In this document: in pieces, positions 25,134 to 55,586 of the stretch | Layout of the letters: each line of letters starts with the position of its first letter | How positions within the stretch are numbered: the stretch's first letter is position 1 | NCBI GenBank assembly: GCA_965197585.1 | Contig: OZ240215.1 | Coordinates: forward strand, 864,001 to 928,000 | DNA length: 64,000 nt | DNA from: Dehalococcoidia bacterium | GTDB lineage: Bacteria > Chloroflexota > Dehalococcoidia > Plut-88900 | Direction: 5' to 3' | Notes under the pieces: generated by a model | Database searches by the model: none | What the model was told of the DNA's origin: nothing | What the model saw: the letters and a program-made list of their open reading frames with translations, nothing else | Made by a program: the position numbers and the translations under genes

Positions 25134-25254
25134 CTTGCCACTCTCCTATAGATATGAGGATGAATACCGGACAAGTTTAACATAACGCGATAGTGGATGG
25201 TAAAGTCGAGCCTGGCGGGTGGTCCCGTTCACATAGAGGGGTGACATATCCCCC

Positions 25255-25283
25255 TTGACTTCATAAGACATGTGTTCTATTAT
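25255..25283 (+). promoter_or_regulatory. sigma70 promoter with LexA-like box
   Basis: TTGACT-17nt-TATTAT with AGAC-ATGT-GTTC abutting the -10. Confidence 0.6.
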
Positions 25284-25521
25284 TGGGCCAGTCTAGACCC
25301 GACACCCACCTTAAGGAGGTACAAAAAACTAGGGAAGCCCACCCGGCCCCCGAGGACTCAACGTCCAAGCCCATCCCAAAGGGCGGCCCACACGCCGCCC
25401 CACGGCACAAGCAAACGCCGCCATCTCCTCATCCCATCGGGTCCCGTGCCCCTTCCCTGACCACCCAGGCGATGGAAGAAGCCCTGGCTTTCTACTCCCA
25501 CCCCTCCCCCACCATCCCCCA

Positions 25522-25550
25522 GTCATTCCAGCCTCCAGGCCGGAATCCAG
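25522..25550 (+). repeat. REP-like palindrome inside element A
   Basis: GTCATTCCAGCCTCCAGGCCGGAATCCAG. Confidence 0.65.
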
Positions 25551-26198
25551 AGGCGGGGTGCGCAGGGAGATTACAACAAGGGTGAAAGGAGATGTACTCG
25601 CGGACCGTAAGACCCCCATAGAGAACCGTCTCGAAGTTCGGACCGCACCGCAAGAGTTAGCGCGCTACGGCGAGGGGGTGCCGGAGGATTTGCTCCGTAT
25701 CGCTCCGGCAAACTGAAAAATCATTAGTCAGGCTGTGGGGCCACAGCTGGATCCCTGGCCCTGACGTGCCCATAGCGGTATACAGCCCCGAAGGAGCCTC
25801 TCACGGACGTCCTGCCCTGGAAGTGTCCGTGAATATAATCGAGCAGAGGGCACGGCCGGCTGCAAGTCCCTCCCTCTCAGGCGGGGCCTGCTCTTAAGGC
25901 CCCCCGACAGCCGGAACACCCGCAAAGAGAGAATGCAAAGCCAGTTAGAGGGCAAGAGGGCGTCTTCCATCGCCGTCCCAAAACCCAACAGACAGAACGG
26001 AAACCCAAACCCCACAATCGAAGATGGAACATCCGCCTCTGGAGGACTGAATAAAAGGCTGGTGTGTCGCTAACCTGCCGAACAAGTACAGCGGATTGAC
26101 CGGCATTCGGCGGGGAGGCTACACTGGATGGGTGAAGTGAACGGATAGTGAAGCTGACCGGACTACTTATACGATAAGGACGGAGCCCGAGATCAAGG

Positions 26199-36590: not shown

Positions 36591-36666
36591 TGGTGCGCCT
36601 GAAGGGATTCGAACCCCCGACCCTCGGTTCCGAAGACCGATGCTCTATCCGCTGAGCTACAGGCGC
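36591..36666 (-). tRNA. tRNA-Arg(TCG)
   Basis: Reverse complement GCGCCTGTAGCTCAGCGGATAGAGCATCGGTCTTCGGAACCGAGGGTCGGGGGTTCGAATCCCTTCAGGCGCACCA; anticodon loop CT-TCG-GA; encoded CCA. Confidence 0.95.
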
Positions 36667-36700: not shown

Positions 36701-36777
36701 TGGGGTGAGCGAAGGGATTCGAACCCTCGATCTCCAGGGCCACAACCTGGTGCCTTAACCGCTAGGCTACGCCCACC
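36701..36777 (-). tRNA. tRNA-His(GTG)
   Basis: Cloverleaf with G-1, anticodon loop TT-GTG-GC, GTTCGAATC T-loop, CCCA end. Confidence 0.95.
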
Positions 36778-54715: not shown

Positions 54716-54738
54716 CGTGGGCCCCTTGCCCCCTAAAA

Positions 54739-55500
54739 GTGACACGAACCCCTTGACCAAATCAAAACACTTGTACTATTATCCCCTCGACTAGCTCGTC
54801 ACTCACCCTAACTATCTCAAGGAGGAACCACAACCCAGGGGGAAACCCAGCCCCGGCCCCGAGGACTCAACGTCCCAGCCCATCCCAAAGGGCGGCCCAC
54901 ACGCCGCCCCTCGGCTCAAGCGAAAGCCGCCATCTCCTCATACCAAAGGCCCGGCTGCCCCTTCCCCAACCACCCAGGCGATGGAAGGTCCACAGACTAT
55001 GCTCGGCATGCCCCGTCCAAGGCCCCTGCCGATTCAACGCTTCCCACTACCGGATGCGTTTACCCCGGCCATTTACGTGCCGGTTTACCGGACAGGTCAA
55101 CCGACCCCCGGTCTAGCAAGGCCCTCGTGCCTTGTTTGTCCCGCCGTCCCCGCCATCCGTCTCTACGACCGATGCACCGGGACGCCGGTTATGAAAGACC
55201 GCCTCAGGCGGCATCTTCCCCGTCAGCGGTCCGGTCAAGTGCCGCTGCCGGAGGGATCGGCCCCACACAACCCTGACCACAGCCGACAACATGTGGGGAT
55301 AATCCAGCCCGGCGCCGACGGCTCGGCAGCAACCTACGGCCTGGTTTCTAGTCCCGGACCTTCCATCGCCTGCCTCCCCTCAACAAACAAACCCGAAACA
55401 CCCAAATCCCAATCGAAGATGGAACATCCACCTTGGGCGGGTCCGCCTCAGGAGGACTGAATAAAACTCCAGTGTGTCACTAATCTACCGAACGAGTACA
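54739..55500 (+). ncRNA. Two-copy structured intergenic element, copy B
   Basis: Shares promoter architecture and 5' and 3' blocks with 25241-26090; perfect 17-bp long-range stem 54975-54991/55356-55372. Confidence 0.6.
54753..54782 (+). promoter_or_regulatory. sigma70 promoter with LexA-like box
   Basis: TTGACC-18nt-TATTAT with AAAC-ACTT-GTAC abutting the -10. Confidence 0.6.
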
Positions 55501-55586
55501 CGACCTTTACAGGTCTAAGGCCATTTCATAGAATGGGCCGGTGCCCGAATCAAACATGATATTTCGCTACGCCGCAGAGACTCCCA

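Follow-up and report, generated by a model that had tools for sequence, protein, structure and literature searches.

A probable structured RNA gene in a transposon-like frame, repeated beside host promoters across one genus of Dehalococcoidia

A basic question raised by this locus is what a pair of intergenic regions with one elaborate architecture represents; namely, whether they are copies of a noncoding RNA gene or of a mobile element. We analysed the two regions, copy A and copy B, within the window (the whole 64,000-nucleotide stretch of a Dehalococcoidia genome considered here; Table 1). A preliminary description had proposed either an undescribed noncoding RNA family of 700–800 nt or a non-autonomous mobile or cassette element with variable cargo. 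Our results indicate a combination of both: each stretch is probably a non-autonomous cut-and-paste transposable element, the payload of which is the gene for a large structured noncoding RNA. The shared architecture was largely described correctly. Copies A and B have in common an ungapped block of 128 nt (25351–25478 and 54860–54987) with exactly 15 mismatches, an A/C-rich linker and a 3′ block. The description of a two-copy element was wrong, as 58 copies were detected in this genome with a covariance model; nhmmer with the 5′ block finds 57, and one further copy beyond these is internally deleted.

Table 1 Coordinates of the features of copies A and B within the window
Feature	Position	Strand	Basis or remark
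Copy A, left target duplication, 5 bp, GCGGG (right, GCGGA)	25215..25219	+	Empty site, ortholog comparison
Copy A, left terminal inverted repeat, starts TG, GTTC...GTGACA motif	25220..25247	+	
Copy A, own promoter, TTGACT, 17 nt, TATTAT	25255..25283	+	10/12 matches
Copy A, Shine–Dalgarno-like AAGGAGG, no start codon after it	25313..25319	+	
Copy A, conserved 5′ domain: multi-helix junction with invariant single-stranded blocks	25320..25467	+	Covariation, fold
Copy A, closing stem, 5′ arm	25468..25485	+	Fold
Copy A, central domain, insert family 1 (12 members in genome)	25486..25956	+	Insert clustering
Copy A, closing stem, 3′ arm	25957..25974	+	Fold
Copy A, A/C-rich, G-poor linker, putative Rho loading site	25975..26017	+	Composition
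Copy A, optional mini-hairpin module	26018..26046	+	Absent in the orthologous copy of species G005
Copy A, conserved tail CTGAATAAAA	26047..26056	+	Short-form copies terminate just past the tail
Copy A, right terminal inverted repeat, ends ...GTACA	26061..26090	+	Motif versus IS-Y inner repeat, 16/20
Copy A, right target duplication, GCGGA	26091..26095	+	
lgt host promoter, TTGACC, 18 nt, TACACT, outside the element	26096..26125	+	Starts 5 bp past element end
Copy B, left repeat: inner remnant, outer part missing	54735..54752	+	
Copy B, own promoter, TTGACC, 18 nt, TATTAT	54753..54782	+	10/12 matches
Copy B, AAGGAGG and conserved 5′ domain	54819..54974	+	Covariation, fold
Copy B, closing stem, 5′ arm, 17 bp	54975..54991	+	Fold
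Copy B, central domain, insert family 3 (7 members)	54992..55355	+	Insert clustering
Copy B, closing stem, 3′ arm	55356..55372	+	Fold
Copy B, A/C-rich linker, two mini-hairpin modules, tail CTGAATAAAA	55373..55466	+	
Copy B, right terminal inverted repeat	55471..55500	+	0 mismatches to motif
def host promoter, TTTACA, 17 nt, TAGAAT, outside the element	55506..55534	+	5 bp past element end

To establish how widely the element is distributed, we searched related genomes with the covariance model and recovered 421 copies in nine species, all from a single genus of Dehalococcoidia. All nine searched species of this genus are positive, with 23–70 copies per genome. The same model gave zero matches in three sister genera (3 genomes), there were also zero in 135 genomes from 101 other genera of the class, and viral contigs gave 0 matches to the element core pattern. 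Sites are common to several species of the genus, often at identical positions, and they persist although the flanking genes are just 76–77% identical between species. When copies are compared with one another, the closest pair is 96.3% identical and every other pair is at most 93.7% identical; therefore, there is no sign of recent movement. XerD and PriA had been correctly named as neighbours of the two copies, but the suggested association with DNA-transaction genes is incidental, as the neighbours of other copies are diverse.

Complete copies are 730–881 bp in length and have TG...CA ends, with a left end that starts TGA or TGG, and imperfect terminal inverted repeats of ~27 bp. The left end of copy A recurs in 15 copies that also retain the right end. 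Of the copies with both ends, 5 have a perfect 5-bp duplication and 4 have a duplication that matches at 4/5 positions; the remainder share longer strings (2 copies) or show weaker duplications (4 copies). Given that the ends are complete in only 15 of 58 copies, transposition cannot be demonstrated for most of them.

Insertion places the right end of the element precisely 5 bp ahead of the −35 hexamer of a host promoter, with the element pointing towards the gene. In 17 of 27 copies, TTG occurs at exactly +5 past this end (genome frequency, 0.0126 per position), and TTT occurs there in 4 more; a TAnnnT box at 16–18 nt spacing is present in 17 of the 27. An empty site in relatives, which the preliminary description suggested seeking, exists for copy A in species G003. 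There, GCGGA directly precedes TTGACC with nothing inserted, and the lgt promoter is unchanged. The site is filled in species G000, G005, G002 and G001, and the G002 ortholog has a perfect GCGGA on both flanks. The G003 site may reflect secondary loss, because more distant species hold the element at this position.

The element ends point to a candidate mobiliser, the resident IS481-family insertion sequence IS-Y. Between the end motif GTTCGG..AGAT..GT.ACAC and the IS-Y inner repeat, 16 of 20 positions agree, and the IS-Y protein scores 281 bits against the IS481 model NF033577 (cut-off, 224). Judged from this resemblance, the element would be moved in trans by an IS481-family transposase resembling IS-Y. 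For its own part, IS-Y lies within a palindromic repeat rather than before a promoter. A search of this genome for an autonomous element with the same ends, allowing up to 5 mismatches, found none. Two other candidates were rejected. A 423-aa transposase located in copy c05 is not an autonomous form, as it belongs to a single-copy insertion sequence with different ends that inserted into c05. IS-X, present in about 20 copies, agrees at 15 of 27 end positions by eye and targets a different palindromic repeat.

The unusually exact target, 5 bp ahead of the −35 box, raises the possibility that the RNA takes part as a cofactor in its own mobilisation, through RNA- or polymerase-assisted homing of the transposase to promoters. 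Guide RNAs serve IS110, IS200/IS605 and CRISPR-associated transposons. The conservation of the RNA jointly with the transposon frame is consistent with such a role, and no partner transposase with the same target habit was seen. However, the targets share only the 5–6 nt of the −35 box, too short for a guide, and the RNA has no stretch that changes from target to target. The RNA is also equally well kept in copies without usable ends, and we know of no use of RNA by IS481-family transposases. We consider this explanation very improbable.

Covariation of its helices supports the interpretation of the element interior as a structured RNA gene that belongs to no Rfam family. RNAalifold on plain MAFFT alignments performed poorly because indels in helix 2 misalign; in its place, the 5′ domain structure was set by hand and then taken through a covariance model and pair counts. 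The counts cover 90 copies, in an alignment that had been fitted to the covariance model, and show compensatory changes on both sides in 16 of 27 pairs of the 5′ domain. Paired cells amount to 94.4% compared with 88.4% in shuffles, and double-change cells number 122 compared with 27.5 ± 4.2 in shuffles and 30 or fewer in slid controls. The observed values on five covariation measures were attained by none of 500 shuffles, although the copies are mutually related and shuffle controls therefore overstate the significance. Independent folds of copies A and B, along with the pair counts, recovered the compensatory differences that had been named at the outset.

The closing stem was also described accurately: in copy A, 12 perfect base pairs (25468–25479 with 25963–25974) are followed by 1 mismatch and 5 more pairs, and in copy B the stem has 17 bp. 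Arms pair better within copies than between copies (0 of 2,000 permutations). Fold z-scores are −2.37 for copy A and −5.92 for copy B. The use of G–U pairs to assign the strand proved to be a weak argument, with 58 G–U versus 44 A–C cells in the 5′ domain and 47 versus 32 in the closing stem; duplex energies are significant on the opposite strand too. An Rfam scan of the window reached the gathering score for two tRNAs only. Copy A has no match up to an E value of 10 and copy B has four chance-level matches (all E ≥ 1.4). Neither copy therefore fits HEARO, OLE, GOLLD, ROOL, group I or II introns, tmRNA, RNase P, 6S, SRP or a riboswitch.

The sigma-70-type promoter reported ahead of each copy is present in both, and under a strict rule the element promoter is retained in 73 of 77 copies. 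The AAGGAGG sequence (54819–54825 in copy B) indeed leads to no start codon, as ATG, GTG and TTG are absent from the 4–14 nt downstream in 77 of 77 copies. We found no conserved open reading frame in the element copies. Copy B contains an open reading frame of 159 codons, from an ATG in the closing stem to a TGA in the tail, and this might suggest that the element encodes a protein from an unusual start, with either AAGGAGG serving as a genuine ribosome site or the closing-stem ATG opening the frame. In most copies, however, the frame from this ATG has only 4–37 codons. Within the family with the long frame, 35 of 54 gap runs are 1–2 nt in length and variable columns lack a third-position bias (60/60/54). 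On the basis of these gap and codon-position patterns we rejected the copy B frame as a gene, and with no start codon behind AAGGAGG in any copy, the coding explanation is almost certainly wrong.

A different alternative is a purely selfish, MITE-like repeat, in which promoter and fold are by-products and conservation results from descent and gene conversion. The terminal repeats, target duplications and empty site are in keeping with it, other small repeats are abundant in the genome and nested into each other, and orthologous copies in sister species differ in promoter subtype, which points to conversion. In addition, the depth ratio of the 5′ domain in RNA libraries is no higher than that in a DNA library (see below). 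Yet conservation favours the RNA part over the ends: all 58 copies contain the 5′ domain, whereas only 15 have both ends. The strict promoter and the compensatory changes also argue against a by-product, as do core motifs that survive in species with housekeeping genes only 76% identical. We regard a purely selfish repeat as quite unlikely.

The inserts enclosed by the closing stem had been read as a possible variable cargo. Clustering of 55 inserts shows that those of copies A and B are not unique but belong to families of 12 and 7 members, respectively. The cargo is thus not free-varying, because the inserts fall into about seven recurring types. The representative of the copy A family has a fold z-score of −1.67. 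Among the top 25 of 144 insert matches outside elements, most are to another repeat that is nested in insert family 4; on these matches, we rejected the idea that inserts are antisense to host genes.

To evaluate transcription, we used the depth of assembled contigs. In contigs from three RNA libraries, the 5′ domain has 8–47 times the depth of neighbouring genes, compared with 48 times in a DNA library. By library, the summed 5′ domain ratios are 32–47 for X1, 8–10 for X6 and 48 for the DNA run X12, and X4 yielded only low-depth pieces. The RNA-library ratios are explained equally well by DNA carry-over or by ordinary per-copy expression. One RNA-library contig of 1,084 nt, which starts in the 5′ domain, exceeds the length of the element.

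We propose that a plus-strand transcript would start about 7 nt past the −10 box. AAGGAGG, near its 5′ end, may act as a STAB-SD-like stabiliser against RNase J, and the A/C-rich, G-poor linker may load Rho, so that transcription would end near the CUGAAUAAAA tail, ahead of the host promoter. Both steps are suggested by composition and analogy. The host has genes for RNase J (565 bits; cut-off, 400) and Rho (593 bits; cut-off, 509). Over 73 copies, median linker length is 42 nt and the base fractions are 0.43 A, 0.42 C, 0.09 G and 0.06 T; Rho-loading stretches are usually cited as 70–80 nt, longer than this linker. Selection would keep the RNA, not the transposon ends.

The 5-bp spacing between the right end and the host −35 box, together with an orientation that is always towards the gene, could also indicate a domesticated cis-acting module, in which the strong promoter and the long folded leader feed or gate transcription of the downstream gene. 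Read-through into the gene could, for instance, be set by conditional termination by Rho in the A/C-rich linker. There is no intrinsic terminator on the plus strand inside copy A or copy B, and the 1,084-nt contig is longer than the element. By a crude test, the longest downstream open reading frame is co-oriented with the element in 39 of 55 copies, and elements upstream of lgt, def and the gene after copy c48 are retained across the genus. However, this purpose would require no more than a promoter, and yet covarying RNA of about 700 nt has been conserved. At least 16 of the 55 copies do not face a co-oriented frame, and the genes downstream of the copies are functionally unrelated. The host promoters are intact and therefore need no help, and a fixed orientation can result from the way in which the transposase reads its target. 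Overall, we judge the cis-acting module to be unlikely. With respect to replication, 21 of 57 copies are co-oriented under one reading of GC skew, with no clean pattern.

For the RNA carried by the transposable element, we lean towards a function in trans, in which it may act as free RNA or as an RNA–protein particle. A more far-reaching proposal, which we rate as unlikely, is that it represents a new class of RNA: the payload of a promoter-homing transposon that recognises the −35 box or the bound sigma factor and sets a strongly expressed RNA gene 5 bp ahead of the promoter. The RNA would then be needed either for homing or as a genus-wide repertoire of ~60 particles or regulatory leaders that have been domesticated and can exchange at least seven kinds of central domain.

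A single putative RNA family makes up about 1.3% of the genome. Whereas non-autonomous elements normally retain nothing but their ends, in this family the strong promoter and the covarying RNA of 0.7 kb are better preserved than the transposon ends and persist at shared sites throughout the genus. The hundreds of natural variants are a resource for resolving the fold and partner of a new large RNA. A shallow search of the literature returned nothing on this element family or on −35-targeted insertion.

Several known systems resemble parts of the element. MITEs and the Correia elements of Neisseria, which are non-autonomous elements with terminal inverted repeats and promoters, are similar in having many copies, inverted repeats and target duplications without a transposase gene, and in being intergenic, near genes and a source of a promoter. 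MITEs are usually well under 0.6 kb, and the element, at 0.73–0.88 kb, is several times larger than typical bacterial ones. It also differs from both in that its interior is a putative covarying RNA gene, better kept than the ends, and that its target lies at a fixed distance from a −35 box. IS481 elements share the TGT...ACA-type termini, the short target duplication and, in the case of IS-Y, the end motif. By contrast, our element has no transposase of its own and a left end of TGA or TGG rather than TGT, and IS-Y and the abundant IS-X target palindromic repeats, not promoters.

Among structured RNAs, HEARO and the omega-RNAs of IscB and TnpB, including copies without open reading frames, are likewise multicopy mobile elements with a structured RNA and its own expression signals. 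The element matches no such Rfam model at E values up to 10, and an IscB or TnpB gene was attached to no copy seen. It also has inverted repeats and target duplications, whereas IS200/IS605 elements have neither. OLE, ROOL, GOLLD and raiA RNAs are comparable in their length of several hundred nucleotides, multi-helix core, invariant junction nucleotides and orphan function. The element differs from them in that it has no Rfam match, occurs in 23–70 copies per genome rather than in one or a few, exchanges its central domain between about seven types and has its gene in a transposon frame. STAB-SD, a 5′ stabiliser of the cry3A mRNA of Bacillus thuringiensis, resembles the Shine–Dalgarno-like sequence near the 5′ end, which has no start codon and occurs in a host with RNase J; this analogy would account for only the first 40 nt of the element RNA.

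No bacterial transposable element is known to select its sites by a constant spacing of 5 bp from the −35 box of a promoter. A parallel in target choice is found in the yeast retrotransposons Ty3 and Ty1, which home to promoters of RNA polymerase III genes, tethered by transcription factors. These also insert a short fixed distance upstream of the transcription start machinery and spare the host gene, although they are eukaryotic LTR retroelements and the element described here is a bacterial DNA element. If the target rule holds, the element would be a bacterial counterpart of the yeast promoter-homing elements, and would point to a way of inserting DNA beside genes without breaking them.

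Copies A and B, the two regions upstream of lgt and def, were read and aligned with each other, and the layout given for them in the preliminary description stands. A sigma-70-type promoter (10 of 12 matches) precedes both, each has an AAGGAGG motif without a start codon downstream, and the ungapped 128-nt block of the 5′ region contains exactly 15 mismatches. A long-range stem of 12 bp in A and 17 bp in B encloses inserts that are unlike each other, and an A/C-rich linker and 3′ block common to both complete the unit. As anticipated, no Rfam family fits either copy: copy A had no matches up to E 10, the four matches of copy B were all at chance level and the only matches above threshold in the window were two tRNA genes outside the copies.

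The element is not limited to two copies, as had been claimed. A search of the 3.43-Mb genome (G000) with the 5′ block returned 40 scored matches among 80 candidates, and nhmmer identified 57 copies with the 5′ block and 46 matches with the 3′ block, in addition to one copy with an internal deletion in the 5′ domain. Whole elements recur, inserts included; most copies share nearly every position with at least three other copies. The inserts of A and B had been described as having no evident similarity to each other; the 55 that could be delimited fall mostly into recurring families (12, 10, 7, 6, 6, 6 and 4 members, and 4 singletons), the insert of A belonging to the first and that of B to the third. 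Copy c33 carries in its central domain two nested copies of a roughly 230-nt repeat, which is also found at about ten places outside elements, on both strands.

Across the genus, a covariance model recovered 421 copies in nine species (58, 39, 42, 70, 41, 42, 52, 23 and 54). The 3 genomes of the three sister genera, which complete the order, had none, and nor did 135 genomes drawn from 101 further genera of the class, in a search with stricter filters and only 17 candidates scored per genome. BLAST agrees with this distribution. An exact-pattern scan of the genomes of 185,579 species gave at least 80 matches, and all those listed are 'MAG: Dehalococcoidia bacterium' records; the scanned viral contigs had none.

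The element is non-coding. ATG, GTG and TTG are absent 4–14 nt past AAGGAGG in all 77 copies (57 from G000 and 20 from four other species), and the open reading frame from the closing-stem ATG spans 4–37 codons in most copies. It reaches 99–173 codons in six of the seven members of the third insert family; we rejected this frame as coding, as 35 of 54 gap runs are 1–2 nt and variable columns are spread 60/60/54 over the codon positions.

Because RNAalifold on MAFFT alignments broke down at indel-rich helices, six helices were set by hand on A2 (an alignment of 5′ domains) and converted to a covariance model, to which 90 copies from nine species were aligned. Compensatory pairing in the 5′ domain, suggested earlier from A and B, is supported: 94.4% of cells are paired compared with 88.4% in shuffles, 16 of 27 base pairs show two-sided changes, and double-change cells number 122 compared with 27.5 ± 4.2 in shuffles and at most 30 in slid controls, counts that come from an alignment fitted to the model and from copies related to one another. 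None of 500 shuffles matched the observed value on any of five pairing measures. Helices 1, 2, 3 and 5 covary; helix 6 varies only from G–C to G–U, and helix 4 (GAGGA/UCCUC) shows no covariation in any copy and hence provides no test of pairing. Same-copy arms pair more stably than different-copy arms in the two outer helices (−23.96 versus −22.38 kcal/mol) and in the copy-specific extension of the closing stem (−13.44 versus −9.84 kcal/mol; 0 of 2,000 permutations in each case), the extension falling into two complementary sequence classes. Single-sequence folds of A and B give the same helices (z-scores of −2.37 and −5.92). Wobble pairs, previously cited as evidence of strand, are not decisive (58 G–U versus 44 A–C); the + strand is assigned because the element's own promoter is conserved, strictly so in 73 of 77 copies.

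Anchoring copies at the −35 box and at the 3′ end located the termini. Both are kept in 15 copies (left TGATCCCGTTCACATAGAGGGGTGACAT, right ...GTGTCACTAATCTACCGAACGAGTACA); read inward, they form imperfect inverted repeats with TG...CA termini. These copies are 730–881 bp long, apart from one that a nested repeat lengthens to 1,099 bp. Just beyond the termini, the flanking 5 bp are identical in five of the 15 (c03, c24, c40, c55 and c56) and agree at four of five positions in four (copy A, c26, c28 and c44); c06 and c13 have longer shared strings, and four further copies a weak match. The remaining copies, including B, lack the outer part of the left repeat and have other repeats before the inner part, and many of them also end soon past the tail CTGAATAA. 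Upstream of many copies (for example, c01, c07, c10, c20, c21, c31, c42, c43 and c47), G-rich, palindrome-centred repeats of several families (about 170–260 nt) are nested within the left repeat, separating its outer part from its inner part; small repeats inserted in one another make the whole genome a mosaic. Hairpin modules of about 22–45 nt (TCGAAGAT..CCGCC-NNN-GGAGGA and variants) are inserted at several sites, both in the RNA and within other repeats. A YYGAAKA-like duplication flanks them, their presence varies between orthologous copies (missing in G005 at the lgt site), and they look like very small mobile insertions.

Coordinates of the element copies and associated features
Feature	Location	Strand
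Copy A (= c08), upstream of lgt	window 25220-26090	+
Copy B, upstream of def	window 54735-55500	+
Tiny hairpin modules	window 26018-26046 and 55413-55456	
Tiny hairpin modules inside 5′ domain	c01, c21, c24, c27, c39, c42, c43, c49 (A2)	
tRNA genes	window 36594-36666 and 36704-36776	minus
Copy with internal deletion in 5′ domain	G000 3315500-3316206	
Solo left end	G000:C1:3404962-3405100	
Repeat of c33 insert (examples elsewhere)	G000 3022438-3022885 and 3034373-3034674	both
IS-X (one copy)	G000:C1:1248220-1249275	
IS inside c05	G000:C1:659335-660705	
Unrelated body at def site	G003 L142:1210-1500	

The preliminary description named the neighbours XerD and PriA correctly (Lgt and Def are likewise correct names), but its tie to DNA-transaction genes is not supported: the partner of the element is the downstream promoter, not any class of gene. 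A right end could be recognised in 27 copies, of which one is probably a false match. In 17 of them TTG begins exactly 5 nt past the terminus (TTT in 4 further copies), whereas at the 19 remaining offsets tested it is seen in only 3; the genome frequency of TTG is 0.0126 per position. TAnnnT follows at a spacing of 16–18 nt in 17 of the 27. A promoter scan also calls these downstream promoters for lgt and def. A solo left end immediately precedes the −35 box of the groES–groEL promoter; a CIRCE-type inverted repeat comes after that promoter.

We searched the genus with unique DNA downstream of each copy. At lgt, the element occupies the same point in G000, G005, G002 and G001, with a perfect GCGGA on either side in G002, and G003 provides the exact empty site that had been proposed as a check (...CGCCGG GCGGA TTGACCGG...). 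The host promoter is intact there and is thus older than the insertion. Given that G008, G004 and G006 also carry the element at lgt, and G007 a remnant, the empty site may represent either the ancestral state or a precise loss of the element. At def, the element is present in eight of nine species; between priA and def of G003, a promoter of this type precedes about 300 nt of sequence that is richer in AT and unrelated to the RNA. It is unlikely that the element serves its downstream gene as a leader in cis. The same placement in front of promoters recurs in copies from other species, and in G007 (L116 and L118) copies lie immediately upstream of tRNA-gene and 5S rRNA-gene promoters.

Flanking genes are 95–96% identical in the nearest species and 76–77% in the farthest. 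Between orthologous copies, the promoter subtype may differ (G000 versus G002), as may a mini-hairpin module (missing in G005), which points to exchange among copies. The highest identity between two full copies in G000 is 96.3%. A MITE-like selfish repeat whose RNA has no function, a reading in keeping with the inverted termini, is improbable, and a role of the RNA in assisting the element's own mobility is more doubtful still: the RNA part persists across deep divergence and where the transposon ends have been lost, and selection therefore appears to act on the RNA. Parts of the element are present in RNA libraries of three studies; in their contigs the 5′ domain has 8–47 times the depth of neighbouring genes, which is no more than the 48 times in contigs of a DNA library.

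The RNA would be transcribed from the + strand. With RNase J in the genome, AAGGAGG may act as a STAB-SD-like shield. Rho is present too, and the linker (42 nt; A 0.43, C 0.42, G 0.09) could serve as its entry site, which would end the RNA ahead of the host promoter.

The genome has 29 rve-domain matches, and a transposase-bearing element with the same outer ends was not found in G000. Two resident IS481-like insertion sequences, IS-X and IS-Y, insert in palindromic repeats and so do not account for the promoter target of the element. IS-X (1,056 bp, with about 20 further places) has copies that are mostly 96–99% identical and always targets the same 5 bp (ATTCC) within a GTCATTCC/GAGGC...GGAATC repeat, in either orientation. 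A single-copy IS inside c05 encodes a distant IS481-like transposase (423 aa), has two repeated binding motifs per end and also lies 5 bp before a −35 box, with a 5-bp duplication agreeing at four of five positions. An IS481-type transposase would move the element in trans. IS-Y, in two copies, encodes a 375-aa protein scoring 281 bits against the IS481 model NF033577 (cut-off of 224); it starts with TGTA, and its inner repeat GTTCGGGGAGATAGGTAACAC agrees with the right-end motif of the element at 16 of 20 aligned positions.
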